Shown here piece by piece: positions 10,202-27,464 of a DNA stretch of 27,464 nucleotides (position 1 is its first letter; every line of letters begins with the position of its first letter). The stretch is from a virus (taxonomy: Duplodnaviria > Heunggongvirae > Uroviricota > Caudoviricetes), in the IMG/VR virus record IMGVR_UViG_2541047865_000002; one strand, written 5' to 3'. Below the pieces are notes generated by a model. The model worked only from the letters and a program-made list of their open reading frames with translations. It did not search any database and was not told where the DNA came from. The position numbers were made by a program, and so were the translations under genes.

Positions 10202-10899
10202 AAAACATCGCCGCACAGATGGTTAACTTTGACCGTGAGCAGATGCGCCGGATCGCCAACAACATGCCGGAACAGTACGACGAAAAGCCGCAGGTACAAC
10301 AGGTAGCGCAGATCATCAATGGTGTGTTCAGCCAGTTACTGGCAACTTTCCCGGCGAGCCTGGCTAACCGGGACCAGAACGAACTGAACGAAATCCGCCG
10401 CCAGTGGGTGCTGGCTTTCCGGGAAAACGGGATCACCACAATGGAACAGGTTAACGCAGGAATGCGCGTAGCCCGTCGGCAGAATCGACCATTCCTGCCA
10501 TCACCCGGGCAGTTTGTTGCCTGGTGCCGGGAAGAAGCATCCGTTAACGCCGGGCTGCCAAACGTCAGCGAGCTGGTTGATATGGTCTATGAGTATTGTC
10601 GGAAGCGTGGCCTGTATCCGGATGCAGAGTCTTATCCGTGGAAATCAAACGCGCACTACTGGCTGGTTACCAACCTGTACCAGAACATGCGGGCCAATGC
10701 GCTTACTGATGCGGAATTACGGCGCAAGGCTGCCGATGAACTGACTTGTATGACCGCGCGAATTAACCGTGGTGAGGCGATACCTGAACCAGTAAAACAA
10801 CTTCCTGTCATGGGCGGTAGACCTCTAAATCGTGCACAGGCTCTGGCGAAGATCGCAGAAATCAAAGCGAAGTTCGGACTGAAAGGAGCAACTGTATGA
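10198..10899 (+). CDS. P: Replication protein P (DnaB helicase loader), 233 aa
   Basis: Near-identical to lambda P as recalled (MKNIAAQMVNFDREQMRRIANNMPEQYDEKPQVQQVAQIINGVF...). Confidence 0.97.
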   Translation: MKNIAAQMVNFDREQMRRIANNMPEQYDEKPQVQQVAQIINGVFSQLLATFPASLANRDQNELNEIRRQWVLAFRENGITTMEQVNAGMRVARRQNRPFLPSPGQFVAWCREEASVNAGLPNVSELVDMVYEYCRKRGLYPDAESYPWKSNAHYWLVTNLYQNMRANALTDAELRRKAADELTCMTARINRGEAIPEPVKQLPVMGGRPLNRAQALAKIAEIKAKFGLKGATV

Positions 10900-11177
10900 C
10901 GGGCAAAGAGGTAATTATTCATTATCTGGAGACGCACAAGAGCTTCTGTGCGCAGGACGTTGCTGCGGCAACAGGTGTGACAGTAACCTGCATAAATCAG
11001 GCAGCAGCTAAAATGGCGCGGGCAGGAATCCTGGTCATTGATGGTAAGGTCTGGCGAACGGTGTATTACCGGTTCGCTACCAGAGAAGAACGGGAAGGAA
11101 AGGTGAGCACGAACCTGATTTTTAAGGAGTGCCGCCAGAGTGCCGCGATGAAGCGGGTGTTGGCGGTATATGGGTGA
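10896..11177 (+). CDS. ren: Ren (Rex exclusion protection protein), 93 aa
   Basis: MTGKEVIIHYLETHKSFCAQDVAAATGVTVTCINQAAAKMARAGILVIDGKVWRTVYYRFATREEREGK... matches lambda Ren; start overlaps the P stop. Confidence 0.9.
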   Translation: MTGKEVIIHYLETHKSFCAQDVAAATGVTVTCINQAAAKMARAGILVIDGKVWRTVYYRFATREEREGKVSTNLIFKECRQSAAMKRVLAVYG

Positions 11178-11590
11178 TTAGTTATTACTTGATTTGATGG
11201 TTATCTCGAAAACATCCAATCAAATTTAATGGTTTGCTTTGTGCGGGGAACTATAACAATGTTTCTAGCTTGGTGCTGTATGAATTAGTGAATTAGTAGG
11301 GAATATATCCACACATTGATTAACACAAAAATATTTTAGATATTAAATGTAACTCAAAGGATGAGTAATAATGGTTGTGTAGCGTATAACAGGATGCTGA
11401 GGTAGTATTAAACAATGAATAAATCTGATTGACAAGCACCAGATAATACTGCGGGTCAATCATTAGACATGAACGCCACTAGTTACTGAGAGTAACTAAT
11501 GGCGTTGTGTTTATAGTTAAGATGTTTTTTAAAACATCAGGGGGGCTCTACTTGTCTTTTTTAATATGATCAATCTCATCATTAAGACAT

Positions 11591-13096
11591 TTATCTATTT
11601 TTTTTTATTAACACATTAATTTCTTCGGTGTTTTGGAGTTGAGTTGTCTTAGAAACAAAAACTCGAATAAAGAATTTAACATAGTGATAGGGTTGAAGTA
11701 CATCGTTATACTTACATAAATCATTTATTGTATACTTGCCGCCTGTTTCTTTTTTTATTATTTTAGCTTGACTTGTATCGATATCTTTAAAGTTATCTTC
11801 AATCTGAAAATCAAGAACCCATTCATCTCCTTTTAAATTATCCTCAATGATTTTGTTGATTTTCTTAGATATATTTTGTTTATATTCTTTGTATCTGTTG
11901 TCGGAAATGTTAACATTAGAAAACGTGTGTTTTTTTTCATATATTTTTTTCCAAACATTTCTATCAACAATATCTTGAATTATAGCTTGAGAATTTTTAT
12001 CTAATGTGTTTTTAAGAGTGTTTTCTAAAAACGTTTTGTCTGGGTTTTCACGATAAAAGTGTTTGATGGACTCAATGAGAGTGTTTTTAGATTTTAAAGA
12101 GACAACATCATCAGTTTTTTTTCTAGAACACGCTTTGTTAAGCATCGCAGATAGTGCACGATTGGTCTTATGAAAATAAACTTGACTATAAAGCCCACTT
12201 CTTGCATTGGCAAATTCTAGTATTGAATCCATACCACTTTCTTTATATGCCAGGTAAACACTATTTTCAACTTTCACAGGAATAAATGACATTAATAATC
12301 GTCCATAATCATAAATCCCATATTTAACGCCGGAGAAGTAGCTATCTCTAAGTAGGTAGTCCATTCTGTCCGCATCTATAGGTGAAGATGATATGATTGA
12401 ACCTAATAAAGGATATACATTTACTCCCTCAATGTTATTTTTAAAATCATATCTTTTATCAACAATTTTTATAATGCTTTCTGGATTAATAGCCGCTATG
12501 TTTTCTTTATAGACATCGTCGTCATTTGATTTATCTTGGGCTTCATTTTTTAATTCTTCAATAATTTCTTTAATAAAAATACATGATACTTGTTCGTGGG
12601 TTAACTTGTCATTATCACTTAAAGATATAATCTTATCGTATTGTTTATTTCCTTCAGTTTTGCATTTTTCTTTGAAATCTTTTACGGATATTGCAAAACT
12701 ATCGAATTGGTGGGCAAGTGGGCCATGCCCAACATCGTGTAACAATGCTGCAATACGTAACTCCTGTATAAGACTTGAAGGCATTTTTTTTATATCTAAA
12801 TATAGATCAATGCCCATATTTTTTCGATTGTAAATTAGTGCATTTAAATCAATATTTTTTAATATTTCATACGATAAATGCATTACACCGACAGAGTGTT
12901 CAAAGCGAGAGTGCATTGCAGAAGGAAATACTTTATATAGAAACGTGTTCTGCCTGATATCTCGTAGTCGTTGGAATAAAGGATGGTCAATTATCTTTTT
13001 TTCTAGCTTAGTTATTCGAATCACTCCATGTATGGGATCTAAAAACTTCCCCAGAAGTAAGTCTTCAAAGTTCTCAAGTTTGTTTTTGTTTGTCAT
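11591..13096 (-). CDS. HD-domain dNTP triphosphohydrolase-like protein (SAMHD1/dGTPase family), 501 aa; candidate anti-phage dNTP-depletion enzyme
   Basis: HD motifs HSRFEHSVGVMHLS, ALLHDVGHGPLAHQFD and DADRMDYLLRDSYFSGVKYG; SD AAGGAAAG upstream; in AT-rich cargo antisense to the phage operon. Confidence 0.8.
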   Translation of the reverse strand: MTNKNKLENFEDLLLGKFLDPIHGVIRITKLEKKIIDHPLFQRLRDIRQNTFLYKVFPSAMHSRFEHSVGVMHLSYEILKNIDLNALIYNRKNMGIDLYLDIKKMPSSLIQELRIAALLHDVGHGPLAHQFDSFAISVKDFKEKCKTEGNKQYDKIISLSDNDKLTHEQVSCIFIKEIIEELKNEAQDKSNDDDVYKENIAAINPESIIKIVDKRYDFKNNIEGVNVYPLLGSIISSSPIDADRMDYLLRDSYFSGVKYGIYDYGRLLMSFIPVKVENSVYLAYKESGMDSILEFANARSGLYSQVYFHKTNRALSAMLNKACSRKKTDDVVSLKSKNTLIESIKHFYRENPDKTFLENTLKNTLDKNSQAIIQDIVDRNVWKKIYEKKHTFSNVNISDNRYKEYKQNISKKINKIIEDNLKGDEWVLDFQIEDNFKDIDTSQAKIIKKETGGKYTINDLCKYNDVLQPYHYVKFFIRVFVSKTTQLQNTEEINVLIKKNR

Positions 13097-13455
13097 GAGG
13101 CTTTCCTTTTGCTGTAGTTATAATACGAAATTTAAATAGTAATGATGTTTATAGTTTCAATGTGTTATCTAATGGTTAACACATTGTGATGTAGCATATC
13201 AATATGGATTCATATGTTCAATTGGTCTGTGGAGTTTAGTTATGAATAAGATTGATTCTGGTAATACTTTGTAGTTTAAGCTAGAGGCGGGATTCGTGAT
13301 GTTCAAATCAGTATGTAATGGAGGTTGTGCATTAGTACTTGCTGCTGGAAATTAAAAATAAAGTTGCAAGTAATCGACGTTTTCCGAGAGGAGAATGTAA
13401 GCATCGCTGACCAAAAAGTATCAACGATGCCTGTTTTGTTTTAACTACAAATTAA

Positions 13456-13716
13456 TTAAATTGCATCTGCAAACTCTGGGATTTTTCGCTCAAGTATGAT
13501 TGATGAGTTGCTGTTGTCGCTTTTTTTATTTTCATGATTACGAATAGCCAATGACTCATTAAAGTCTTTTGCGACTGCTGTCTCAATAAATTCAATTTCT
13601 GAATCAGAGTGTTTTTTAACAGCTTCTTTGATCTCATCCAGAGTAACATAGAAAAACTCTTTTCTACGATTTACAAGATTGACTCTCTTTTTATCGAAGA
13701 CATCATGTAGTTTTTT
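13456..13716 (-). other. -1-frame continuation of the T5orf172 domain (LHDVFDKKRVNLVNRRKEFFYVTLDEIKEAVKKH...), entered at slippery heptamer A_AAA_AAC (13710..13716); either a programmed frameshift or a homopolymer frameshift mutation
   Basis: Manual translation: the domain's expected C-terminal motifs are open for 87 codons in the -1 frame starting exactly at a 7-A run; no ATG in that frame; the zero frame stops 17 codons later. Confidence 0.6.
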
Positions 13717-14957
13717 TCTAATGATGGAGCGTCCTCCGAATAAATCATGGCATGCACATCAAAAATAAAAGGAACAGATGCATCACCAAGCTCATTTACA
13801 CGGTCTTGTGGATCAAGACGTCGTGTCATGCCTATTTTATAAACATTCTCCCCAAAAGAACCTATGTTCGAAATAATATAAACATGACCTTGTTTGGTTT
13901 GTTGTGCCATGGATAATGCTCTTTGATGCTTTGATTCAGCCTGCGACAAACTCTGTTCTAGTTCGGCAATGCGATTTTCGAGGCGCTGCTTCATGTCACC
14001 AGTAACTTTTTCCATTTCCTTTCTTGCAGCTTCAATTGCTTTTTTATAACGGCGCTCTTCTGCCTCTGCGTCTTGCATGGCCTTTTCTATTTCTCGTTGT
14101 GCACGCTCCTCCTCTCTCATTTGTGCCCTTATTTCTGCCTGTTCTTCTTTTTCTTTCTGTTTTTGCTCACGATATTCATGGGTAAGCCACAACTCCTCAA
14201 GTTTTTTATTAAGGTATTTAGTATTTATATATATGTGATTTTGCTCGTTTAGTTTATTTATGGCCTCAAATGCCTTTGTGATGCGTTCTTCCATTTTAGT
14301 GATATTTTTCCACGTGCAATTACTAATTGCAGCATCACATTCATTATTAAATGCTCTAGTAGTTAGCCTAATATTTCTGTCTGTCATTTTTTTACCCTCT
14401 GCTCGAGAGCCTTCAACAGTCCATTGGGTTGTGCAATATACTGCACCAGAGTGGGTTTTATCCCGCAGCATTAATTTCTGTTCATCCCTGATGGATTTTA
14501 TTTTGTTTTTAAATTGCTCTGAATCTTCAAAATTAAAATGAGGTTCGTAAAATCCTAGTTCGGCTAGTTCAACATCTTCTGAATAAATAGAAATTTGCTT
14601 TACTAACTTATCATATATTTCTTTCTTCTCTTTATAAGTTCTTCTTAGTTCTTGGATTTGTTTATTGATACCATCCATTTTTTCAATGGTGTTTGTTAGT
14701 TCATTATTGGCATTTTCTTTTACTTTTTGGGACTCTTCTTTTATAATGGAGCATTCTTGCTCTGTTTTCTCAATAAGCTTCTTACATTCCTCTTCCACAT
14801 TAAAATAATCTGCAAAGCGAGATTTGTATTCTTCATTTTTTTGATTGCTATCACTTAATTCTAATTGTATTTTTTTGATGCGTTTGATTGCAGCTATATA
14901 TAGAACAAGAACAACCAATAAAAATATGATTGCAAGTAATAGTGGAGTTTGAGTCAT
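13671..14957 (-). CDS. Membrane-anchored coiled-coil protein with DUF4041 and the N-terminal part of a T5orf172 (GIY-YIG-like) domain; 428 aa in the zero frame
   Basis: N-terminal TM helix LLLAIIFLLVVLVLYIAAI; long coiled-coil (EERAQREIEKAMQDAEAEERRYKK...); DUF4041-like core; C-terminal GHVYIISNIGSFGENVYKIGMTRRLDPQDRVNELGDASVPFIFDVHAMIYSEDAPSLE; SD AAGGAA upstream. Confidence 0.85.
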   Translation of the reverse strand: MTQTPLLLAIIFLLVVLVLYIAAIKRIKKIQLELSDSNQKNEEYKSRFADYFNVEEECKKLIEKTEQECSIIKEESQKVKENANNELTNTIEKMDGINKQIQELRRTYKEKKEIYDKLVKQISIYSEDVELAELGFYEPHFNFEDSEQFKNKIKSIRDEQKLMLRDKTHSGAVYCTTQWTVEGSRAEGKKMTDRNIRLTTRAFNNECDAAISNCTWKNITKMEERITKAFEAINKLNEQNHIYINTKYLNKKLEELWLTHEYREQKQKEKEEQAEIRAQMREEERAQREIEKAMQDAEAEERRYKKAIEAARKEMEKVTGDMKQRLENRIAELEQSLSQAESKHQRALSMAQQTKQGHVYIISNIGSFGENVYKIGMTRRLDPQDRVNELGDASVPFIFDVHAMIYSEDAPSLEKNYMMSSIKRESIL

Positions 14958-15383
14958 TCGTGCTATTCCTTACGGACAATTTAAGACGTTTTGTATTAAA
15001 TCCTGTTCAATGTGTATGCGGGTGATTGCTACCGCTTACAATCTTCATAATTATCAGTTAGATAGACTCGCTAGTAAATAATTTCATTTTTTGCAATATT
15101 CTTATTGAATATTTCAATTTATGAAATGAGCTCTTTATCCTTTCAAGGCGAAAGGTTTCTTCTTCGGAAATATTTGCTCTCGTGTGACGTATAAAGGCCT
15201 TTGATTTTTAAAAAACAGTAGGAAATAATATAGTTACTGTCGGCCTGAACACCCGGCGGTGGGGTTGCGCTAAACGGGGACGTTTATGCGCACATACAAT
15301 CTAAACTCTCTTCTCCCTTCACAGATGCAGAAATGCACCTGCGATTTTTTGCATCCAACGTTTGACCTCTGCGGAGGTGAAGC

Positions 15384-15839
15384 ATGAACCTACCACAAGA
15401 TGGCATCAAATTACATCGTGGCAACTTCACCGCTATCGGCCAGCAGATCCAGCCTTATCTGGAGGACGGAAAATGCTTTCGCATGGTGCTTAAACCGTGG
15501 CGTGAGAAACGCAGTCTTTCCCAGAGTGCACTCAGCCACATGTGGTACAGCGAAATCAGTGAATACCTTATCAGCAGGGGTAAAACGTTCGCCACTCCAG
15601 CTTGGGTAAAAGATGCTCTCAAACACACATATCTCGGTTATGAAACCAAAGACCTGGTTGATGTCGTAACCGGTGATATCACCACTATCCAGTCGTTACG
15701 CCATACCTCCGACCTTGATACCGGAGAGATGTATGTCTTCCTGTGTAAGGTTGAAGCCTGGGCGATGAATATTGGCTGCCACCTGACTATTCCGCAGAGC
15801 TGCGAGTTCCAGCTGCTGCGTGATAAGCAGGAGGCGTAA
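15384..15839 (+). CDS. ybcN: YbcN-like nin-region protein (DLP12 ybcN homologue), 151 aa
   Basis: Protein recalled as DLP12 YbcN; first gene of a tightly overlapping nin block. Confidence 0.85.
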
Positions 15840-16009
15840 TGGCTACACCGCTTATTCGTGTCATGAACGGACACATCTACAAAATACCAAATCGTCGTAA
15901 GCGTAGGCCTGAGCTGAAACCATCCGAAATACCAACACTGCTCGGATATACCGCCAGCCTGGTTGATAAAAAATGGTTGCGACTGGCAGCAAGGAGGAAT
16001 CATGGCTGA
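15839..16009 (+). CDS. ninE: NinE-like protein, 56 aa
   Basis: Manual translation [56 protein letters not shown]; ATG overlaps the ybcN stop (TAATG) and its stop overlaps the ybcO start. Confidence 0.75.
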   Translation: MATPLIRVMNGHIYKIPNRRKRRPELKPSEIPTLLGYTASLVDKKWLRLAARRNHG

Positions 16010-16292
16010 TTTGAGAAAAGCAGCGCGTGGTCGGGAATGCCAGGTAAGAATCCCTGGCGTATGTAATGGCAATCCTGAAACGTCTGTACTGGCACATATC
16101 CGGCTGGCTGGATTGTGCGGTACCGGTATCAAACCGCCAGACCTGATTGCCACCATTGCATGTTCTGCCTGTCACGACGAGATCGACCGTCGCACGCATT
16201 TTGTTGACGCTGGATATGCAAAAGAATGCGCGCTGGAAGGTATGGCGAGAACGCAGGTTATCTGGCTGAAAGAGGGGGTAATTAAGGCGTGA
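16002..16292 (+). CDS. ybcO: YbcO-like protein (DUF1364, putative nuclease), 96 aa
   Basis: [64 protein letters not shown]... matches DLP12 YbcO; strong SD AAGGAGG. Confidence 0.9.
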
Positions 16293-16651
16293 ATACCTAC
16301 AATATCACATTACCCTGGCCGCCGAGCAATAATCGCTATTACCGCCATAATCGCGGGCGCACGCACATCAGCGCAGAGGGGCAGGCATACCGCGAAAACG
16401 TCGCCCGAATCATTAAAAACGCAATGCTGGATATCGGCCTGGCTATGCCTGTGAAAATCCGCATTGAGTGTCACATGCCGGATCGCCGTCGCCGTGACCT
16501 GGATAATCTACAAAAGGCCGCTTTTGACGCACTCACCAAAGCAGGTTTCTGGTTGGATGATGCTCAGGTCGTTGATTACCGCGTTGTGAAGATGCCGGTT
16601 GTCAAAGGTGGAAAGCTGGAACTGACCATCACTGAACAGGGAGATGAATGA
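16289..16651 (+). CDS. rusA: RusA Holliday-junction resolvase, 120 aa (GTG start)
   Basis: [74 protein letters not shown]... matches E. coli RusA. Confidence 0.95.
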
Positions 16652-16788
16652 TGTTTGAGTTTTATATGGCAGAACTTCTTCGCCACCGCTGGATGCGCCT
16701 GCGCTTATATCGTTTCCCCGGTTCTGTTTTGACCGATTACCGAATACTGAAGAATTACGCCAAAACACTGACAGGAGCAGGAGTATGA
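16648..16788 (+). CDS. ylcG: YlcG-like small protein, 46 aa
   Basis: Manual translation [46 protein letters not shown]; start overlaps the rusA stop; recalled as DLP12 ylcG. Confidence 0.7.
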
Positions 16789-16873
16789 AGTCAGAGATAA
16801 CAATCAACTAATACTGTTTTGTTGATTTTTGCTTGTAATTGGCGTTCTGGTCTGAGTTTTGTGGAGTAAGTTG

Positions 16874-17251
16874 ATGCGTGATATTCAGATGGTTCTTGAG
16901 CGTTGGGGAGCGTGGGCGGCTAATAATCATGAAGATGTGACCTGGTCGTCCATTGCCGCCGGTTTTAAGGGATTAATTCCTTCAAAAGTAAAATCTCGCC
17001 CACAATGTTGTGACGATGACGCGATGATCATTTGCGGGTGCATGGCCCGTCTGAAAAAGAACAACAGCGATTTGCATGATTTATTGGTGGACTATTATGT
17101 CGGCGGCATGACTTTTATGGCGCTTGCACGTAAGCATGGGCGATCTGATTGTTGGGTTGGCAGGATGCTCCAGAAAGCTGAGGGCGTAGTGGAGGGTATG
17201 CTGATGGTGTTGGATCTCCGATTGGAGATGGATGCTGATTGTTCGAAATAA
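16874..17251 (+). CDS. quuD: Q-family late-gene antiterminator (DLP12 QuuD-like), 125 aa
   Basis: [62 protein letters not shown]... recalled as QuuD; sits immediately upstream of the late/lysis region. Confidence 0.9.
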
Positions 17252-17349
17252 TTAAAGGAAAAGTTGCTGTCTGATTCTCATTAGTCTAACATTTTAAATG
17301 TTGGAATCGCAACGTAGTTATTATCATATAACAGCTTGTTTCCTGATTT

Positions 17350-17378
17350 AGCCAGCCTCCCCAAAGGCTGGTTTTTTT
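17350..17378 (+). terminator. Intrinsic terminator about 100 nt downstream of the Q gene (candidate tR' of the pR' leader)
   Basis: Hairpin CCAGCC-TCCCCAAA-GGCTGG followed by TTTTTTT. Confidence 0.6.
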
Positions 17379-17406
17379 CTAATAAGTATTATTTCGGGTA
17401 GGGATT

Positions 17407-17931
17407 TTATTGTTTAACCCATAATAATTCATTGACATTGAATCCCAACTTTTGAGCGGTTCGCACATAGTCTGCTTTTACTTTATCTGGAATAGTTGGG
17501 GTCCTTGCCAGAATCCATAGGTATTCTCTGTTCGGACCACTGACAAGAGCATACTTATACTCATCATCCAGTTTGATTACATTATAGCCACCATAGAAGG
17601 GGCCAAAAAACGAAACCTTCAACGCTGCAGTTTTAGTATCTCCAGTAAAGTATGCTTTACCTTCGCTCTCGCTCCATTTATTTTTCGTTGGATCGTATCC
17701 ACGGTTAAGTACACGAATCCCTCCGTCGTTCCGTTTTCCATAAGTAGCGCTGACCTGTTCCAGACCACGTTCGAATCGGTTCTCGAGGCGAGCTATTTCA
17801 TACCACTTTCCGAGGTAGCGGTTGGCGTCAAAATTTGTAATCGGCTGCACACCTTTAGGTGGTGTCGGGACCTTACATGCTATAAGAGTGAAAGAGAGTG
17901 CAATGCCAGTCAACACAGGCCATAACTTCAT
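17407..17931 (-). CDS. Blc-like bacterial lipocalin, outer-membrane lipoprotein, 174 aa
   Basis: Signal peptide with lipobox (LIAC); strong similarity to E. coli Blc as recalled (FDANRYLGKWYEIARLENRFERGLE...SEGKAYFTGDTKTAALKVSFFGPFYGGYNVI...YLWILARTP). Confidence 0.85.
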   Translation of the reverse strand: MKLWPVLTGIALSFTLIACKVPTPPKGVQPITNFDANRYLGKWYEIARLENRFERGLEQVSATYGKRNDGGIRVLNRGYDPTKNKWSESEGKAYFTGDTKTAALKVSFFGPFYGGYNVIKLDDEYKYALVSGPNREYLWILARTPTIPDKVKADYVRTAQKLGFNVNELLWVKQ

Positions 17932-18123
17932 AATAAATCCTGTACTTTTGATAGTTGAGAGTAAGTATGAAAGATAGATGATTACGACCGATCACTTAAA
18001 GAACTTTCATACTATATTAGGAATAGTCCATAACAGAAAAATTGTCAGTGATGACGCCAGAAAGGCAATTTATTCCGTGCACTACACAGTTTATGTGTTA
18101 ATGAATTAGTCAAGGGGGAGGAT

Positions 18124-19083
18124 ATGATAAAAAAACCTGTGATTGGAATCAGCGGTTGTCTGGCCGGTTCTGCTGTTCGTTTTGATGGTGGTCACAAAAG
18201 AGCTGACTTTTTAATGGACAAATTAGTGGAATGGGTAACATTCAGACCAGTATGTCCGGAAATGGCTATAGGGCTGCCAGTTCCGCGTCCTGCTCTACGT
18301 CTTGTGCGCTCGACGCAAGGAAATATACGGATGTGTTTCAGCCACGACCAGAATGAGGATGTGACAGAGAGAATGACAGAGTTTAGTCGTTCTTATATGG
18401 ACAAATTAAAGGATGTATCGGGGTTTGTGGTTTGTGCTAAATCTCCCAGCTGTGGCATGGAGCGCGTGCGTGTCTATGATGAAAATGGTAATCGAGGTCG
18501 TAAAGATGGAGTGGGACTATTTACGAGCACTTTGATGGAAAAGTTTTCCTGGCTACCGGTTGAAGAGGATGGGCGATTACATGATCCAGTGCTTCGTGAG
18601 AATTTTGTTGAAAGAGTTTTTGCTTTGCATGAGCTCAATCACCTTTACAAGGAGAAATTATCAAGAAGAGAGTTATTAGCTTTTCATAGTCGTTATAAGC
18701 TTCAGTTGTTGGCGCATAGTCAGGCAGGCTATAAAGATATGGGACCATTTGTGGCTGCAATACACGAGTGGGCGGACCTTGAATCATACTTTGAGGTGTA
18801 TCGTGATAAGCTGATGGCGATTCTCAGAAAACCTGCATCACGTAAAAATCACACGAATGTGCTGATGCATATACAGGGGTATTTTAGTAACTACTTAAGT
18901 ACACGCCAGCGTAAAGAGTTGAGCGAGGTTATACTTAACTATCGTTCTGGCACATTACCTCTTCTTGCGCCGTTGACTCTGCTGAAGCATTATCTGGGTG
19001 AGTATCCTAATGATTACTTGCTTACACAGAATTACTTCGATCCCTATCCGGACGAACTGGCTCTAAGACTGATGGTAAATTAA
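18124..19083 (+). CDS. DUF523 (TudS-like, putative Fe-S thiouracil desulfidase) plus DUF1722 (YbgA-like) fusion protein, 319 aa
   Basis: N-terminal VIGISGCLAGSAVRFDGGHK with conserved Cys residues (C12, C44, C104/C109); C-terminal YbgA-like half; strong SD GGGGGAGGA. Confidence 0.75.
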   Translation: MIKKPVIGISGCLAGSAVRFDGGHKRADFLMDKLVEWVTFRPVCPEMAIGLPVPRPALRLVRSTQGNIRMCFSHDQNEDVTERMTEFSRSYMDKLKDVSGFVVCAKSPSCGMERVRVYDENGNRGRKDGVGLFTSTLMEKFSWLPVEEDGRLHDPVLRENFVERVFALHELNHLYKEKLSRRELLAFHSRYKLQLLAHSQAGYKDMGPFVAAIHEWADLESYFEVYRDKLMAILRKPASRKNHTNVLMHIQGYFSNYLSTRQRKELSEVILNYRSGTLPLLAPLTLLKHYLGEYPNDYLLTQNYFDPYPDELALRLMVN

Positions 19084-19425
19084 TTGTATGCGATATCATC
19101 CAAAAGGATGAGTTCCTGCATGCAGGATATTTACAATCGTAAAAACTACACTATGATACCCAGAGTGTCAGTTTGTATAAAAACTCTGTTTACGCTGAAG
19201 AAACCATTGAGATGCAACTTAAAGTTGGTAAACATGCCAGTCAAAATATATAATATTATGATTCCACGCAGCTATATATAATATAACAGATTGGTTTAAT
19301 AATTTGTCTTTGTGAGTTAAATACATAATTTTATACTTGTGATGCAATGAGATTTTCCTTATTGTTGAACTGGCGAATATTGATTTTCCACCTATACTTA
19401 CCTGGTGTAACCCCAATGATATCAG

Positions 19426-20160
19426 GTGGATAATATGCCATACATATGTTCTATCATTTTGGTGTTGAACTCGTTTGATGTCCGAATTGGTAAAGAAGAT
19501 ATTTTATTTAAAAAAGGAAGTGCTGTTCTCATTGATTACAATTTAAAAGATTTTTTTTCATCAAATATAGATCATGCAATGATCGTAGATGTTGAAGAGA
19601 AAACAGTTAATGATTTCTTTAAAAGCAACACACTCTCACCTTTTTCTGTAAGAAGGTTTTATCCGGCATACTTGATGGTGGAATGTGAAGATTTTTCATT
19701 GTTAAAGAACTTGATTGCATGCTTGAATTGTGATGGCAGAACTGTGGATTTTGTTAGAAATCAAATATCACTTGCATGTCTTGCTATCTTATCTTCAGAG
19801 AAAATAGTGCAAAGTTTTTTATTTGGATGTCTTAATAGTTTAGGAAGTAAAGTTAAGGCTATTATTCACACGGATATATCTGCAGCATGGAGACTTTGTG
19901 ATATATCTTCAAGACTGTATCTGAGTGAAAGTCTGTTAAAAAGAAAATTAAAGCACGAAGGCTTATCATTTAGTAAGTTAATTCTTGAAGAGCGAATGGT
20001 GATGGCGGAAAGGTTATTAAGCTACAATTTATATTCTGTTGGAAAAGTTACTGAGATATGCGGTTATGAAAACACGTCATATTTTGTAAGTGTTTTCAGA
20101 AGATATTTTGGTGTTCCTCCCCATCAATATTCATCAAGATTTTTTTTAGAAAAGACATGA
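19426..20160 (+). CDS. AraC/XylS-family transcriptional regulator, 244 aa
   Basis: C-terminal double HTH (…ERLLSYNLYSVGKVTEICGYENTSYFVSVFRRYFGVPPHQY); gene is visibly AT-rich with rare-codon flavour, suggesting horizontal acquisition. Confidence 0.85.
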   Translation: MDNMPYICSIILVLNSFDVRIGKEDILFKKGSAVLIDYNLKDFFSSNIDHAMIVDVEEKTVNDFFKSNTLSPFSVRRFYPAYLMVECEDFSLLKNLIACLNCDGRTVDFVRNQISLACLAILSSEKIVQSFLFGCLNSLGSKVKAIIHTDISAAWRLCDISSRLYLSESLLKRKLKHEGLSFSKLILEERMVMAERLLSYNLYSVGKVTEICGYENTSYFVSVFRRYFGVPPHQYSSRFFLEKT

Positions 20161-20227
20161 TGTAACGTGATGCGTTTTAATGATTTTGTAATTTTCGTAT
20201 TTGATAATTGTATGATGCTTTCAGCTA

Positions 20228-20258
20228 CGCCAGAATAATCGCTGGCGTTTTTCTTTTT
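20228..20258 (+). terminator. Intrinsic terminator downstream of the AraC-family gene
   Basis: Hairpin CGCCAG-AATAATCG-CTGGCG followed by TTTTTCTTTTT. Confidence 0.5.
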
Positions 20259-20353
20259 GAATAGATGTTCAAGCCTTACGCTAATGTAACTTCTATACCT
20301 TTCCTCTTCGTTCCGAACCGTGTACACCATCCGTTATTTGCGGAGGTGAGGCT

Positions 20354-20569
20354 ATGAAATCCATGGATAAGTTAACAACGGGTGTCGCCTATGGCACCTC
20401 AGCAGGTAGTGCCGGTTACTGGTTTTTACAGCTGCTCGATAAAGTCACGCCCTCACAGTGGGCAGCAATAGGTGTGCTGGGTAGCCTGGTATTTGGCCTG
20501 CTGACGTACCTGACAAACCTTTATTTCAAGATTAAAGAAGATAAGCGCAAGGCTGCGAGAGGTGAATAA
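20354..20569 (+). CDS. S: Class II holin (phage 21 S21-type pinholin), 71 aa
   Basis: [71 protein letters not shown] closely matches S21 as recalled; two TM segments. Confidence 0.9.
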
Positions 20570-20987
20570 TGCCTCCATCATTACGAAAAGCCGTTGCTGC
20601 TGCTATTGGTGGCGGGGCTATTGCTATAGCATCTGTGCTAATCACTGGCCCAAGTGGTAACGATGGTCTGGAGGGTGTGAGACATAATCCTTACAAAGAC
20701 ATAGTTGGTGTATGGACTGTATGTTACGGGCATACAGGAAAAGACATCATTCCTGGTAAAACGTATACCGAAGCAGAGTGCAAAGCCCTCCTGAATAAAG
20801 ACCTTGCCACTGTCGCCAGACAAATTAACCCGTACATCAAAGTCGATATACCGGAAACAACGCGCGGCGCTCTTTACTCGTTCGTCTACAACGTGGGTGC
20901 TGGCAATTTCAGAACATCGACGCTTCTTCGCAAAATAAACCAGGGTGATATTAAAGGCGCATGTGATCAGCTACGGCGCTGGACATA
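20569..20987 (+). pseudogene. R: SAR endolysin (phage 21 R-type lysozyme) truncated by IS3 after about 139 codons
   Basis: N-terminal SAR domain [27 protein letters not shown] and lysozyme core match R21; the ORF runs into the IS3 terminal repeat at 20988 and ends in IS-encoded residues. Confidence 0.85.
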
Positions 20988-21017
20988 TGATCCTACCCAC
21001 GTAATATGGACACAGGC

Positions 21018-21884
21018 CTAAGCGAGGTTCTGGTTTTCAAATTGTTCCGGACTGAGGCCGCCACACCAACTGTGCCGCCGCCACCGATTGTAATCACATT
21101 CGATATAATTAAACACCGTTGCCCGCATTATTTCCCGGCTGATAAAGTGTTCTCCATGGATACATTCCACTTTCAGCGAATGAAAGAAGCTTTCCACGCA
21201 GGCATTATCGTAGCAGCAACCTTTTGCGCTCATACTTCCACGCAGATTATGCCGCTTCAGTTGCGCCTGATAATCTGCTGAACAGTACTGGCCTCCACGG
21301 TCCGTGTGAACGATAACGTTCCGGGGCCTCTTACGCCGCCACAGCGCCATCTGCAGGGCATCGCAGGCCAGTTGCGCCGTCATGCGTGGCGACATTGACC
21401 AGCCAATAACGGCACGTGACCACAGGTCAATGACCACTGCCAGATACAGCCAGCCTTCATCTGTACGTAAGTACGTGATGTCTCCTGCCCACTTCTGGTT
21501 CGGGCCACTGGCGTAAAAATCCTGCTCCAACAGATTTTCTGACACAGGCAGGCCGTGTGCGCGGTAGCTGACCGGGCTGAACTTCCGGGAGGCCTTTGCC
21601 CTCAGTCCCTGACGGCGCAGGCTTGCCGCCACGGTTTTTACGTTAAAGGGGTAACCCTGAGCACGCAGTTCATCCGTCAGGCGTGGGGCACCGTAACGCT
21701 GTTTTGACCGGGTAAAAGCCGCGAGGACAACGCTGTCGCAGTGTTGGCGGAACTGCTGACGCGTGCTTATCCTTGTCCGCCGCTGACACCACGTATACCA
21801 GCCGCTGCGGGCCACCCGGAGCACGCGGCACATTGCTTTGATGCTGAACTCAGCCTGATGTTTTTCAATAAAGACATACTTCAT
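21018..21884 (-). CDS. insF: IS3 transposase OrfB (DDE integrase domain), 288 aa
   Basis: [36 protein letters not shown]... matches IS3 InsF; start overlaps the orfA stop (AAATGA). Confidence 0.95.
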
Positions 21885-22180
21885 TTCAGGCGCTTCGCGA
21901 AGTATGTCGCGGCCTTTTGGAGGATAGCCAGCTCTTCATCCCGTTCTGCCAGCTGGCGTTTGAGACGTGCAATCTCGGTAGACATCTCCAGTTCACGTTC
22001 AGAAGACGTCTGCTGATTTTGCTGTTTACTGCGCCAGTTGTAGAGCTGTGATTCATACAGGCTGAGTTCACGGGCTGCGGCAGTAACACCGATGCGTTCA
22101 GCAAGCTTCAGGGCTTCACTGCGAAATTCAGGCGAATGCTGTTTACGGGGTTTTTTACTGGTTGATACTGTTTTTGTCAT
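21881..22180 (-). CDS. insE: IS3 transposase OrfA (HTH), 99 aa
   Basis: [54 protein letters not shown]... matches IS3 InsE. Confidence 0.9.
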
Positions 22181-22245
22181 GTGAGTCACCTCTGACTGAG
22201 AGTTTACTCACTTAGCCGCGTGTCCACTATTGCTGGGTAAGATCA

Positions 22246-22340
22246 TCCCTACTTCCCCGGATGTGGCGGACATGACGGAGGATGACGTAATGCTGATGAC
22301 AGTATCAGAAGGGATCGCAGGAGGAGTCCGGTATGGCTGA
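22246..22340 (+). pseudogene. T: 3' remnant of the lambda tail assembly gene T (G-T), truncated at the IS3 junction
   Basis: In-frame reading ...LMTVSEGIAGGVRYG* ends with its stop overlapping the H start (ATGGCTGA), the normal T-H arrangement; all upstream sequence is replaced by IS3. Confidence 0.5.
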
Positions 22341-24912
22341 ACCGGTAGGCGATCTGGTCGTTGATTTGAGTCTGGATGCGGCCAGATTTGACGAGCAGAT
22401 GGCCAGAGTCAGGCGTCATTTTTCCGGTACGGAAAGTGATGCGAAAAAAACAGCGGCAGTCGTTGAACAGTCGATGAACCGGCAGGCGCTGGCTGCACAG
22501 AAAGCGGGAATTTCCGTCGGGCAGTATAAAGCCGCCATGCGTATGCTGCCTGCGCAGTTCACTGACGTGGCCACGCAGCTTGCAGGCGGGCAAAGTCCGT
22601 GGCTGATCCTGCTGCAACAGGGGGGTCAGGTGAAGGACTCCTTCGGCGGGATGATCCCCATGTTCCGGGGGCTTGCCGGTGCGATCACCCTGCCGATGGT
22701 GGGGGCTACCTCGCTGGCGGTGGCGACCGGAGCGCTGGCGTATGCCTGGTATCAGGGCAACTCAACCCTGTCCGATTTCAACAAAACGCTGGTCCTTTCC
22801 GGCAATCAGGCGGGACTGACGGCAGATCGTATGCTGGTCCTGTCCAGAGCCGGGCAGGCGGCAGGGCTGACGTTTAACCAGACCAGCGAGTCACTCAGCG
22901 CACTGGTTAAGGCGGGGGTAAGCGGTGAGGCTCAGATTGCGTCCATCAGCCAGAGTGTGGCGCGTTTCTCCTCTGCATCCGGCGTGGAGGTGGACAAGGT
23001 CGCTGAAGCCTTCGGGAAGCTGACCACAGACCCGACGTCGGGGCTGACGGCGATGGCACGCCAGTTCCATAACGTGACGGCGGAGCAGATTGCGTATGTT
23101 GCTCAGTTGCAGCGTTCCGGAGATGAAGCCGGGGCATTGCAGGCGGCGAACGAGGCCGCAACGAAAGGGTTTGATGACCAGACCCGCCGCCTGAAAGAGA
23201 ACATGGGCACGCTGGAGACCTGGGCAGACAGGACAGCACGGGCATTCAAATCCATGTGGGATTCGGTGCTGGATATTGGTCGCCCGGACACTGCCCAGGG
23301 AATGCTGGAGAAAGCAGAAAAGGCTTTTGATGAGGCGGACAAAAAATGGCAGTGGTATCAGAGCCGGAGCCACCGGCGCGGTAAAACCTCAGCATTTCTT
23401 GCCAATCTCCGGGGAGCATGGGAGGACAGAGCGAATGCGCAACTTGGGCTTTCAGCCGCCACGTTGCAGGCCGATCTTGAAAAGGCCAGAGAGATGGCAG
23501 CAAAGGACTGGGTCGAGTCTGAGGCATCACGGCTGAAATATACCGAAGAGGCGCAGAAGGCTTACGAACGCCTGCAGACGCCGCTGGAGAAATATACCGC
23601 CCGTCAGGAAGAACTGAATAAGGCACTGAAAGACGGGAAAATCCTGCAGGCAGATTACAACACGCTGATGGCGGCAGCGAAAAAGGATTATGAAGCGACG
23701 CTGAAAAAGCCGAAGCAGTCCGGCGTGAAAGTGTCTGCAGGCGATCGCCAGGAAGACAGTGCTCATGCTGCCCTGCTGACGCTTCAGGCAGAACTCCGGA
23801 CGCTGGAGAAGCATGCCGGAGCGAATGAGAAAATCAGCCAGCAGCGCCGGGATTTGTGGAAGGCGGAGAGTCAGTTCGCTGTACTGGAGGAGGCGGCACA
23901 ACGTCGCCAGCTGTCCGCACAGGAGAAATCCCTGCTGGCGCATAAAGATGAGACGCTGGGGTACAAACGCCAGCTGGCTGCACTTGGCGACAAGGTTACG
24001 TATCAGGAGCGCCTGAATGCGCTGGCGCAGCAGGCGGATAAATTCGCACAGCAGCAACGGGCAAAACGGGCCGCCATTGATGCGAAAAACCGGGGGCTGA
24101 CTGACCGGCAGGCAGCGCGGGAAGCCACAGAACAGCGTCTGAAGGAACAGTATGGCGATAATCCGCTGGCGCTGAATAACGTCATGTCAGAGCAGAAAAA
24201 GACCTGGACGGCTGAAGACCAGCTTCGCGGGAGCTGGATGGCAGGCCTGAAGTCCGGCTGGAGTGAGTGGGAAGAGAGCGCCACGGACAGTATGTCGCAG
24301 GTTAAAAGTGCAGCCACGCAGACCTTTGATGGTATTGCGCAGAATATGGCGGCGATGCTGACCGGCAGTGAGCAGAACTGGCGCAGCTTCACCCGTTCCG
24401 TGCTGTCCATGATGACAGAAATTCTGCTTAAGCAGGCAATGGTGGGGATTGTCGGGAGTATCGGTAGCGCCATTGGCGGGGCTGTTGGTGGCGGCGCATC
24501 CGCATCAGGCGGTACAGCCATTCAGGCAGCTGCGGCGAAATTCCATTTTGCGACCGGAGGATTTACGGGAACCGGCGGCAAATATGAGCCAGCGGGGATT
24601 GTTCACCGTGGTGAATTTGTCTTCACGAAGGAGGCAACCAGCCGGATTGGTGTCGGCAACCTGTACCGCCTGATGCGGGGCTATGCGGAAGGTGGTTATG
24701 TGGGCGGTGCCGGAAGTCCGGCGCAGATGCGGCGGGCTGAAGGCATTAATTTTAATCAGAACAATCACGTGGTGATTCAGAACGACGGTACGAATGGTCT
24801 GCCAGGTCCACAGATGATGAAGGCAGTGTATGACATGGCCCGCAAGGGTGCCCGTGATGAAATTCAGGCACAGATGCGCGATGGTGGTCTGTTCTCCGGA
24901 GGTGGACGATGA
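22333..24912 (+). CDS. H: Tail tape-measure protein H, 859 aa
   Basis: Near-identical to lambda H as recalled (MAEPVGDLVVDLSLDAARFDEQMARVRRHFSGTESDAKK...); Gly-rich C-terminal region. Confidence 0.95.
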   Translation: MAEPVGDLVVDLSLDAARFDEQMARVRRHFSGTESDAKKTAAVVEQSMNRQALAAQKAGISVGQYKAAMRMLPAQFTDVATQLAGGQSPWLILLQQGGQVKDSFGGMIPMFRGLAGAITLPMVGATSLAVATGALAYAWYQGNSTLSDFNKTLVLSGNQAGLTADRMLVLSRAGQAAGLTFNQTSESLSALVKAGVSGEAQIASISQSVARFSSASGVEVDKVAEAFGKLTTDPTSGLTAMARQFHNVTAEQIAYVAQLQRSGDEAGALQAANEAATKGFDDQTRRLKENMGTLETWADRTARAFKSMWDSVLDIGRPDTAQGMLEKAEKAFDEADKKWQWYQSRSHRRGKTSAFLANLRGAWEDRANAQLGLSAATLQADLEKAREMAAKDWVESEASRLKYTEEAQKAYERLQTPLEKYTARQEELNKALKDGKILQADYNTLMAAAKKDYEATLKKPKQSGVKVSAGDRQEDSAHAALLTLQAELRTLEKHAGANEKISQQRRDLWKAESQFAVLEEAAQRRQLSAQEKSLLAHKDETLGYKRQLAALGDKVTYQERLNALAQQADKFAQQQRAKRAAIDAKNRGLTDRQAAREATEQRLKEQYGDNPLALNNVMSEQKKTWTAEDQLRGSWMAGLKSGWSEWEESATDSMSQVKSAATQTFDGIAQNMAAMLTGSEQNWRSFTRSVLSMMTEILLKQAMVGIVGSIGSAIGGAVGGGASASGGTAIQAAAAKFHFATGGFTGTGGKYEPAGIVHRGEFVFTKEATSRIGVGNLYRLMRGYAEGGYVGGAGSPAQMRRAEGINFNQNNHVVIQNDGTNGLPGPQMMKAVYDMARKGARDEIQAQMRDGGLFSGGGR

Positions 24913-25238
24913 AGACCTTCCGCTGGAAAGTGAAACCCGGTATGGATGTGGCTTCGGCCCCTTCCGTCAGGAAAGTGCGCTTTGGTGATGGCTATTCCCA
25001 GCGAGCGCCTGCCGGGCTGAATGCCGACCTGAAAACGTACAGCGTGACGCTTTCTGTTCCCCGTTGGGAGGCCACGGCGCTGGAGTCGTTTCTGGCTGAG
25101 CACGGGGGCTGGAAAGCCTTTCTGTGGACGCCGCCTTATGAGTGGCGGCAGATAAAGGTGACCTGCGCAAAATGGTCGTCGCGGGTCAGTATGCTGCGTG
25201 TTGAGTTCAGCGCAGAGTTTGAACAGGTGGTGAACTGA
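24909..25238 (+). CDS. M: Tail tip protein M, 109 aa
   Basis: Matches lambda M (MKTFRWKVKPGMDVASAPSVRKVRFGDGYSQRAPAGLNADLKTYSVTLSVPRWEA...); overlaps the H stop. Confidence 0.95.
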   Translation: MKTFRWKVKPGMDVASAPSVRKVRFGDGYSQRAPAGLNADLKTYSVTLSVPRWEATALESFLAEHGGWKAFLWTPPYEWRQIKVTCAKWSSRVSMLRVEFSAEFEQVVN

Positions 25239-25936
25239 TGCAGGATATCCGGCAGGAAACACTGAATGAATGCACCCGTGCGGAGCAGTCGGCCAGCGTG
25301 GTGCTCTGGGAAATCGATCTGACAGAGGTCGGTGGAGAACGTTATTTTTTCTGTAATGAGCAGAACGAAAAAGGTGAGCCGGTCACCTGGCAGGGGCGAC
25401 GGTATCAGCCGTATCCCATTCAGGGGAGTGGTTTTGAACTGAATGGCAAAGGCACCAGTACGCGCCCCACGCTGACGGTTTCTAACCTGTACGGTATGGT
25501 CACCGGGATGGCGGAAGATCTGCAGAGTCTGGTCGGCGGAACGGTGGTCCGGCGTAAGGTTTACGCCCGTTTTCTGGATGCGGTGAACTTCGTCAACGGA
25601 AACAGTGACGCCGATCCGGAGCAGGAGGTGATCAGCCGCTGGCGCATTGAGCAGTGCAGCGAACTGAGCGCGGTGAGTGCCTCTTTTGTACTGTCCACGC
25701 CGACGGAAACGGACGGCGCTGTTTTTCCGGGACGTATCATGCTGGCCAACACCTGCACCTGGACCTATCGCGGCGATGAGTGCGGTTATCACGGTCCGGC
25801 GGTCGCGGATGAATATGACCAGCCAACGTCCGATATCACGAAGGATAAATGCAGCAAATGCCTGAGCGGTTGTAAGTTCCGCAATAACGTCGGCAACTTT
25901 GGCGGCTTCCTTTCCATTAACAAACTTTCGCAGTAA
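25238..25936 (+). CDS. L: Tail tip protein L, 232 aa
   Basis: Matches lambda L (MQDIRQETLNECTRAEQSASVVLWEIDLTEVGGERYFFCNEQNEKGEPVTWQGRRYQPYPIQ...). Confidence 0.95.
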   Translation: MQDIRQETLNECTRAEQSASVVLWEIDLTEVGGERYFFCNEQNEKGEPVTWQGRRYQPYPIQGSGFELNGKGTSTRPTLTVSNLYGMVTGMAEDLQSLVGGTVVRRKVYARFLDAVNFVNGNSDADPEQEVISRWRIEQCSELSAVSASFVLSTPTETDGAVFPGRIMLANTCTWTYRGDECGYHGPAVADEYDQPTSDITKDKCSKCLSGCKFRNNVGNFGGFLSINKLSQ

Positions 25937-25941
25937 ATCCC

Positions 25942-26685
25942 ATGACACAGACAGAATCAGCGATTCTGGCGCACGCCCGGCGATGTGCGCCAGCGGAGTC
26001 GTGCGGCTTCGTGGTAAGCACGCCGGAGGGGGAAAGATATTTTCCCTGCGTGAATATCTCCGGTGAGCCGGAGGCGTATTTCCGTATGTCGCCGGAAGAC
26101 TGGCTGCAGGCAGAAATGCAGGGTGAGATTGTGGCGCTGGTCCACAGCCACCCCGGTGGTCTGCCCTGGCTGAGTGAGGCCGACCGGCGGCTGCAGGTGC
26201 AGAGTGATTTGCCGTGGTGGCTGGTCTGCCGGGGGACGATTCATAAGTTCCGCTGTGTGCCGCATCTCACCGGGCGGCGCTTTGAGCACGGTGTGACGGA
26301 CTGTTACACACTGTTCCGGGATGCTTATCATCTGGCGGGGATTGAGATGCCGGACTTTTATCGTGAGGATGACTGGTGGCGTAACGGCCAGAATCTCTAT
26401 CTGGATAATCTGGAGGCGACGGGGCTGTATCAGGTGCCGTTGTCAGCGGCACAGCCGGGCGATGTGCTGCTGTGCTGTTTTGGTTCATCAGTGCCGAATC
26501 ACGCCGCAATTTACTGCGGCGACGGCGAGCTGCTGCACCATATTCCTGAACAACTGAGCAAACGAGAGAGGTACACCGACAAATGGCAGCGACGCACACA
26601 CTCCCTCTGGCGTCACCGGGCATGGCGCGCATCTGCCTTTACGGGGATTTACAACGATTTGGTCGCCGCATCGACCTTCGTGTGA
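25942..26685 (+). CDS. K: Tail tip assembly protein K (MPN/JAMM plus NlpC/P60-like), 247 aa from the first ATG; the 199-aa form would start at 26086
   Basis: Matches lambda K; the upstream in-frame extension contains the HSHPGG-type JAMM motif region; 3' end overlaps I by about 100 nt. Confidence 0.9.
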   Translation: MTQTESAILAHARRCAPAESCGFVVSTPEGERYFPCVNISGEPEAYFRMSPEDWLQAEMQGEIVALVHSHPGGLPWLSEADRRLQVQSDLPWWLVCRGTIHKFRCVPHLTGRRFEHGVTDCYTLFRDAYHLAGIEMPDFYREDDWWRNGQNLYLDNLEATGLYQVPLSAAQPGDVLLCCFGSSVPNHAAIYCGDGELLHHIPEQLSKRERYTDKWQRRTHSLWRHRAWRASAFTGIYNDLVAASTFV

Positions 26686-27254
26686 AAACGGGGGCTGAAG
26701 CCATCCGGGCACTGGCCACACAGCTCCCGGCGTTTCGTCAGAAACTGAGCGACGGCTGGTATCAGGTACGGATTGCCGGGCGGGACGTCAGCACGTCCGG
26801 GTTAACGGCGCAGTTACATGAGACTCTGCCTGATGGCGCTGTGATTCATATTGTTCCCAGAGTCGCCGGGGCCAAGTCAGGTGGCGTATTCCAGATTGTC
26901 CTGGGGGCTGCCGCCATTGCCGGATCATTCTTTACCGCCGGAGCCACCCTTGCAGCATGGGGGGCAGCCATTGGGGCCGGTGGTATGACCGGCATCCTGT
27001 TTTCTCTCGGTGCCAGTATGGTGCTCGGTGGTGTGGCGCAGATGCTGGCACCGAAAGCCAGAACTCCCCGTACACAGACAACGGATAACGGTAAGCAGAA
27101 CACCTATTTCTCCTCACTGGATAACATGGTTGCCCAGGGCAATGTTCTGCCTGTTCTGTACGGGGAAATGCGCGTGGGGTCTCGCGTGGTTTCTCAGGAG
27201 ATCAGCACGGCAGACGAAGGGGACGGTGGTCAGGTTGTGGTGATTGGTCGCTGA
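26583..27254 (+). CDS. I: Tail tip assembly protein I, 223 aa
   Basis: Matches lambda I (MAATHTLPLASPGMARICLYGDLQRFGRRIDLRVKTGAEAIRALATQLPAFRQKLSDGWYQVR...). Confidence 0.95.
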   Translation: MAATHTLPLASPGMARICLYGDLQRFGRRIDLRVKTGAEAIRALATQLPAFRQKLSDGWYQVRIAGRDVSTSGLTAQLHETLPDGAVIHIVPRVAGAKSGGVFQIVLGAAAIAGSFFTAGATLAAWGAAIGAGGMTGILFSLGASMVLGGVAQMLAPKARTPRTQTTDNGKQNTYFSSLDNMVAQGNVLPVLYGEMRVGSRVVSQEISTADEGDGGQVVVIGR

Positions 27255-27272
27255 TGCAAAATGTTTTATGTG

Positions 27273-27295
27273 AAACCGCCTGCGGGCGGTTTTGT
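27273..27295 (+). terminator. Terminator-like hairpin between I and J
   Basis: AAACCGCC-TGCG-GGCGGTTT followed by TGTCATTT; 8-bp GC-rich stem just upstream of the J ribosome-binding site. Confidence 0.3.
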
Positions 27296-27314
27296 CATTT
27301 ATGGAGCGTGAGGA

Positions 27315-27464
27315 ATGGGTAAAGGAAGCAGTAAGGGGCATACCCCGCGCGAAGCGAAGGACAACCTGAAGTCCACGCAGTTGCTGAGTGTGATCGATGC
27401 CATCAGCGAAGGGCCGGTTGAAGGTCCGGTGGATGGATTAAAAAGCGTGCTGCTGAACAGTACG
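27315..27464 (+). CDS. J: Tail fibre / host-specificity protein J, 5' end only (first 50 codons; gene continues past the window)
   Basis: MGKGSSKGHTPREAKDNLKSTQLLSVIDAISEGPVEGPVDGLKSVLLNST matches the lambda J N-terminus; SD GAGG upstream. Confidence 0.9.
   Translation, partial: MGKGSSKGHTPREAKDNLKSTQLLSVIDAISEGPVEGPVDGLKSVLLNST

Follow-up and report, generated by a model that had tools for sequence, protein, structure and literature searches.

Escherichia coli prophage DNA at the lambda attachment site carries an IS3 element that joins a truncated endolysin gene R directly to the end of the tail assembly gene T. Very probably, the late genes between them were lost in a simple internal deletion of about 12.4 kb, which followed the insertion of IS3 into R and extended from the IRL side of the element.

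The stretch of DNA analysed here, referred to as the window, comprises 27,464 nt of the Caudoviricetes record IMGVR_UViG_2541047865_000002, contains zero N, and has its last base (27464) within gene J. From 10569 to 27464, the window is identical to the last part of KE701469.1, a scaffold in the E. coli draft assembly GCA_000460035.1 (locus L003), and thus ends where the scaffold ends. This end in J lies 5.2 kb past IS3, and the ybhB-side end of the prophage is beyond view. Positions 1-20987 are 99.4% identical over 100% of their length to E. coli 2018-11-3CC (NZ_AP021895.1), adjoining ybhC, and from about 19 kb onward the window is mosaic relative to its best relative. The window contains a defective lambdoid prophage, which occupies the E. 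coli attachment site for lambda beside ybhC. The sequence-level statements of the initial annotation of this DNA were all borne out, base for base.

The IS3 element

A complete IS3 of 1258 bp occupies positions 20988-22245 on the minus strand and was recognized by its TG...CA ends, the match of its inverted repeats, its identity to IS3A of K-12 and the Pfam domains of its transposase; the initial annotation had given the same length, and these coordinates yield exactly 1258 bp. The imperfect terminal inverted repeats (5'-TG...CA-3') match at 28 of 40 positions, and only 2 of the 1255 positions aligned with IS3A of strain K-12 MG1655 differ (99.84% identity). ORF analysis located orfA (99 aa; 21881-22180, minus strand), with an A4G slippery site near its end, while the ORF list and Pfam define orfB (288 aa; 21018-21884, minus strand), which lies in the -1 frame relative to orfA and encodes the rve integrase-core domain. 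The Pfam matches of the transposase are HTH_Tnp_1 and HTH_21/rve/rve_3/rve_2, i.e., of the DDE/rve type. The element is a canonical member of the IS3 group of the IS3 family, into which its length, ends, orfA/orfB frames and slippery motif fit. It is oriented with IRR at the low-coordinate end, adjoining R, and IRL at the high-coordinate end, adjoining T.

The left flank: holin and endolysin

Upstream of the element lies an intact phage-21-type holin gene (20354-20569, plus strand), whose product of 71 aa bears the MKSM dual-start motif and matches PF04971, the phage 21 holin S family, over its full length (E=2e-35; model positions 1-63 of 64). It is followed by the SAR endolysin gene R of the phage-21/RrrD type (20569-20987, plus strand), identified by PF00959 and PDB alignments, of which the 5' 419 of 498 nt are left. 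Compared with the intact allele, the frame is native through nt 419, i.e., 139 codons and 2 nt, and the interruption previously placed after about codon 139 was accordingly located after nt 419. The first base of IS3 restores Tyr140, and ten IS3-encoded codons follow before a stop at 21021, so that the R::IS3 product has 150 aa, 140 native residues and 10 encoded by IS3, the latter in place of the 25 C-terminal residues that are gone.

The R fragment covers model positions 3-110 of 125 of Phage_lysozyme (PF00959) and aligns with the phage 21 lysozyme and RrrD (PDB 3hde, 4zpu) over residues 1-141. The Gly/Ala-rich N-terminal (SAR) segment and Glu35, Asp44 and Thr50, as read off the translation, are retained. 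The cassette thus resembles that of phage 21 (pinholin S21 and SAR endolysin R21; PDB 3hde, 3hdf) in its PF04971 holin and in an endolysin that aligns with R21/RrrD over residues 1-140, with the SAR N-terminus and the Glu35/Asp44/Thr50 residues present. Unlike the phage 21 cassette, it lacks the last 25 residues of the endolysin, and Rz/Rz1 are deleted.

The left junction reads GGACATA/TGATCC, where the ATA at 20985-20987 is, according to the sister locus L018 described below, the one copy left of the original target-site duplication of 3 bp. This junction is well supported, as the 150-aa fusion product was present in 20 contigs that were read and in 13 contigs by exact look-up; isolates with this product include those of EFN5684602.1, EHI0871999.1, EIY1676007.1 and EMR5431011.1.

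The right flank: T remnant and tail genes

Beyond the element, homology to T of lambda and to T of the intact relative sets in exactly at 22246 and continues as far as the stop codon at 22338-22340. What is left of this lambda-type tail assembly gene (22246-22340, plus strand) is its last 95 of 435 nt, starting with nt 341 and opening with TCC; these make up 30 sense codons, the stop and 2 nt, which agrees with the abutment on about the last 30 codons of T in the initial annotation. Alignment to lambda and NZ_AP021895.1 also places the deletion end point in T at 22246. The homology does not extend across the gene, and T (PF06223) is therefore a remnant in the window, not a gene. The right junction reads AGATCA/TCCCTAC.

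The remnant overlaps the start of the intact tape-measure gene H at 22333 (22333-24912, plus strand; PF06791, PF09718), which is followed by the tail-tip genes M, L, K and I and the first 150 nt of J (24909-27464, plus strand), as defined by gene calls and Pfam matches of the identical locus L003. The H product has 859 aa, compared with 853 aa in the closest lambda-site relatives, and in the protein collection look-up the exact H protein was found nowhere but in this scaffold. The tail genes of the window are closest, at 98.5% in a single ungapped stretch, to those of a prophage in the Qin site of another strain; their identity to lambda-site prophages is 95-98.9%. The exact K allele occurs both in lambda-site prophages and at other sites; the exact K protein was considered as a tracer of the right junction and dropped as far too widespread (9,893 blocks). 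Because the tail genes are mosaic in this way, similarity alone does not assign the right flank to this prophage. The junction of IS3 with T was seen in this one draft scaffold only, which is the main caveat on the join.

Missing duplication and missing interval

The flanks of the element (GGACATA/IS3/TCCCTAC) form neither a 3-bp nor a 4-bp direct repeat (ATA vs TCC, CATA vs TCCC), and our re-inspection agrees with the earlier reading that no target-site duplication is present. Random flanks would match at 3 bp with a chance of 1/64, so a missing repeat is also to be expected of them. It is meaningful only because plain insertions of IS3 do make one, as in 7 of 7 cases here and in 69 of 69 plain IS insertions with duplication in an evolution-experiment analysis (PMC11708052). 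The expected 3-bp duplication, lacking in the window, is present at the sister locus L018/L008 (ATA/ATA), and its absence in the window marks a secondary deletion and not a different element.

A prophage at the same lambda site is intact in three complete E. coli genomes, 2018-11-3CC (NZ_AP021895.1), Evo1 and 1297KP, in which the two flanks of the window map 12,384, 13,067 and 12,384 bp apart, respectively. Their late genes follow the order essD, rrrD, Rz, small genes, nohD, terminase, W, portal, protease, D, E, FI, FII, Z, U, V, G, T, H, M, L, K, I, J, lom, stf and tfa, and then ybhB-bioA of the chromosome. The interval absent from the window holds the rest of R, Rz/Rz1, cos, the terminase, portal and head genes, the tail-shaft genes, G and most of T, which is exactly the loss that the initial annotation had proposed when it stated that the flanks were not originally adjacent. 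The distances of 12.4-13.1 kb in the intact genomes support that the R and T flanks were not adjacent in the original prophage. The combination of one IS element, no duplication and flanks that are non-adjacent in relatives is that of a deletion formed next to an IS element or by recombination between two of them. Promoter and terminator motifs were also looked for across the junctions, and none scored above the shuffled expectation.

Other IS3 insertions in this type of lysis cassette

As controls, the flanks were compared with those of IS3 elements that lie in this lysis cassette in other complete genomes. All seven plain insertions have perfect 3-bp duplications (TAA, TTG, CAA, GTC, GGC, ATA and TTA), and all three copies that lack a duplication, i.e., those of L015, L016 and the window, have lost DNA. 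In PEC1003 (L015), the left junction is shared with the plain insertion of 63-2 (L001), and R with most of Rz is lost on the IRL side, as in the window; in PK13 (L016), 147 nt of R are lost.

The sites in R-type genes, compiled from the window (20569-20987), L001, L002, L015, L016, L033-L038 and L008/L018, are the overlap of the S stop with the R start and R nt 26-28, 51-53, 109-111, 414-416 and 417-419, with insertions in both orientations. An impression from the first match list that IS3 has a single orientation in the cassette was rejected when a search for inverted IS3 found many opposite insertions. The site at nt 109-111 is occupied in three different prophage backgrounds, and two independent insertions occurred at adjacent triplets, GGC in JS316 and four other genomes and ATA in the lineage of the window. 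At least six distinct sites thus fall inside a gene of 498 nt or at its start, a tally from searches that favour IS3 close to this cassette and carry no genome-wide background, and three of the copies have already given rise to deletions next to them. We tentatively raise the idea, which we regard as rather doubtful, that the phage-21-type endolysin gene is a recurrent target of IS3 in E. coli prophages. The recurrence could reflect a local target preference of IS3 or selection for endolysin knock-outs.

The plain insertion that preceded the deletion

A degenerate pattern, composed of the IRL end of IS3 and either possible right flank, was run on species-representative genomes and metagenomes. 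The only metagenome match (L017) was due to chance. The scan of species-representative genomes retrieved contig JARKOR010000234.1 (L018), which reads ...GGTAAGATCA ATA CGCTGGCGG..., i.e., the IRL end of IS3, ATA, and R from nt 420, followed by Rz. The left junction lies on L008, a second contig of the same assembly, whose identity to the window is 99.9% across 3070 nt. Together, L018 and L008 show the IS3 of the window, with site and orientation unchanged, as a plain insertion flanked by the ATA duplication, which makes them the plain-insertion precursor state at this very position. Both contigs were deposited (GCA_029975625.1) in a metagenome bin labelled Candidatus Nanosynbacter and are evidently contaminants of that bin.

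The insertion preceded the deletion, because L018/L008 keep the same IS3 with its ATA duplication and the rest of R. An insertion of IS3 into an older deletion is excluded by the state of L018/L008 and by the unchanged IRR/R junction. The initial annotation spoke of an IS-associated deletion of the late region, a view now backed by the intact relatives and by the sister locus with the same IS3.

The sister locus has lost late genes too, with nohD (at about nt 158) joined to the 3' end of stf (L018 3330-3510), and in strain JS316, whose prophage is at the same attachment site, the end of nohD is joined to tfa (L033 13570-14300). No IS element lies at either junction. As the end points differ, these losses are independent decay events; a shared older nohD-to-stf deletion in L018 and JS316, which would have blocked the descent of the window, was rejected for the same difference in end points. 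The sister lineage L018 formerly had a lambda-type late region with nohD and stf.

Proposed mechanism

We propose a history of two steps. IS3 first transposed into R at nt 417-419, duplicating ATA, a step directly visible in the compared loci, with the effect that R was knocked out and its last 25 residues removed. In the second step, of which the product is seen and the route may be either of two, about 12.4 kb would have been lost beyond the IRL end of IS3, up to nt 340 of T, leaving the IRR/R junction untouched and no duplication behind. This could be an adjacent deletion driven by the transposase, in which one end of the element acts on a target close by in the same DNA molecule. Alternatively, a second IS3 could have inserted into T in direct orientation, at a TCC target, and homologous recombination between the two copies would then have removed the interval. 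The two routes give an identical product, inseparable by sequence, and we consider them about equally likely.

IS copies that lack a duplication are reported to arise from adjacent deletion or from IS-IS recombination (PMC11708052), and IS3-adjacent deletions have been made experimentally (PMC8860574). In a long-term evolution experiment, each of the 14 IS150 deletions that were examined arose at a place that already carried a plain insertion (PMC11708052). The window shares with the deletions of these two studies the two-step history of plain insertion and one-sided loss, one kept junction and the vanished duplication, and its size is within the reported range of 14 bp-48.9 kb. It differs from the experimental IS150 and IS3 deletions in that it was found in a natural isolate, inside a prophage, with the acting route left between two.

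Strain MB22 (L040) speaks for the two-copy route: its prophage, a related one that is also integrated at this site, contains two IS3 elements in direct orientation with 5 kb between them, at L040 21033-22195 in Rz and 26107-27269 upstream of the small terminase gene; this pair is a ready substrate for a deletion by recombination. The integrase and Q of the MB22 prophage are truncated by IS1. Further in favour of the two-copy route are R::IS3 samples with an extra IS3 nearby, which is inverted in Q (at the position corresponding to window 16942) or direct in a ybgA-like gene. The inverted copy inside Q was observed at one shared position (=window 16942) in L004, L005, L006 (position 1 to 140-299) and the start of L007. 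Since Q is intact in the window, the window belongs to a different sub-lineage from the samples with Q::IS3. An insertion of IS3 into T with a TCC duplication, i.e., the two-copy intermediate, was absent from IMG/VR and the complete genomes, though it may have been transient. The predicted 119-aa ORF of the T::IS3 fusion (T residues 1-114 followed by LILPT, in 8 alleles) was likewise absent from about 15 billion public proteins. Both absences count weakly against the two-copy route.

Other explanations of the join

The flank in T could have come from a different lambdoid prophage, in tandem or at a distance, if the IS3 in R recombined with an IS3 in T of that prophage. We regard such a join as unlikely; its outcome would be a larger deletion, an inversion or a hybrid prophage in place of a simple internal loss of 12.4 kb. 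The similarity of the tail genes to the Qin-site prophage (98.5%, against 95-98.9% for lambda-site ones) and the length of H, six residues beyond that of the nearest lambda-site relatives, are in keeping with it. However, the gene order and orientation are exactly as expected for the same prophage, the exact K allele is also found in lambda-site prophages, the window is already mosaic upstream of IS3, the lambda-type late region with nohD and stf existed in this lineage according to L018, and a T::IS3 junction is not on record among the 15 billion proteins.

A still smaller chance falls to an assembly artefact, in which IS3 would be present both in R and in T, of this or another prophage, the flanks would have been mis-joined, and the late region would still exist. 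The junction string of the window is GGGTAAGATCA+TCCCTACTTCC, while the alternative strings GGGTAAGATCA+ATACGCTGG and GAAGTTATCC+TGATCCTACCC would denote a mis-join or a two-copy genome. The scaffold is a draft that ends 5.2 kb beyond the join, the right junction was found in no second source, and the remaining assemblies that show the left junction are all interrupted within IS3, as would be compatible with a mis-join. The left and right junctions were absent from 5,426 complete E. coli genomes, where five full-coverage matches to the left junction proved to be two pieces about 330 bp apart and not the junction, and pattern scans of IMG/VR gave no match for the right, the left or the hypothetical T::IS3 junction. 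Against the artefact, IS3 and both flanks are continuous in the scaffold, and a true two-copy genome would be expected to give no read pairs linking the remnants of R and T. Moreover, the T::IS3 ORF, searched for as 8 T alleles, was not found in a protein collection that covers this assembly and contains its R::IS3 and H proteins, which speaks against a mis-join at two IS3 copies; the initial annotation had named an assembly artefact as a possible refutation. The lambda-type late region of the sister lineage L018, with nohD and stf, points the same way.

Finally, capture of IS3 in the double-strand break of an unrelated deletion, in one step and with no duplication made, is hardly credible: such an origin has been proposed for some IS movements, and duplication-less IS copies that arose together with rearrangements are documented (PMC11708052), but in L018/L008 this IS3, inserted after the identical nucleotide and oriented alike, comes with the ATA duplication and with a left flank 99.9% identical.

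Gene content and predicted consequences of the deletion

The prophage retains, by Pfam, the early genes for an integrase with the lambda arm-binding domain, excisionase and exo/bet/gam, and the regulators, i.e., a repressor with HTH and S24 self-cleavage domains, a Cro-like protein and Q. Further kept genes, assigned with Pfam and PADLOC, are O, P, the phage-21-type holin gene, H through the start of J, and cargo genes. This inventory upholds the description of a prophage with int/xis, replication genes, an inducible-type repressor and an intact pinholin. Lost are the C-terminus of the endolysin, Rz/Rz1, cos, both terminase subunits, portal and all head genes, and among the tail genes Z, U, V, G and most of T.

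Two further genes lie between the replication and nin regions. One encodes a 428-aa PD-Lambda-1 protein (13671-14957, minus strand; defence model E=3e-169; DUF4041/SNIPE and MUG113 domains), and the adjoining one a 501-aa HD-domain protein (11591-13096, minus strand) that had no match to a defence model. Three cargo genes at 17407-20160, between Q and the holin gene, encode a lipocalin on the minus strand, a DUF523/DUF1722 protein of the YbgA family and a regulator of the AraC type. Transcription of the late genes has to run through these cargo genes, and the same arrangement exists in the intact relatives.

Much as the initial annotation predicted, an induced prophage could still be excised and replicated, and Q-dependent transcription could proceed through S, the truncated R, IS3 and the tail-tip genes; particles or normal lysis should no longer be possible for it. 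The holin alone would be expected to kill the induced cell, without normal lysis.

Discussion

The cryptic lambdoid prophages DLP12, Qin and Rac of E. coli K-12 are defective, keep a lysis cassette of the essD/rrrD type, the Q region and tail fragments, have lost packaging and head genes and contain embedded IS elements, as does the prophage in the window. Unlike DLP12, Qin and Rac, the window prophage resides at the lambda site with an apparently complete early region and H-J, and the end points of its deletion are set by a single IS3. IS-driven decay of prophages is an ordinary and well understood process, and the window is one more instance of it that adds little new.

For annotation, the prophage should be recorded as defective, R as a pseudogene and T as a remnant. 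Joins of this kind in draft assemblies need confirmation at the read level.

If selection underlies the recurrent insertions, the knock-out of the endolysin would be a first step in the taming of a prophage, which deletions adjacent to the IS element later extend. The known anti-phage gene PD-Lambda-1 may help explain the persistence of the remnant. The locus offers a clean natural example of an IS element that first disables a gene for lysis and later removes the structural genes of a prophage, with the precursor preserved in another sample.
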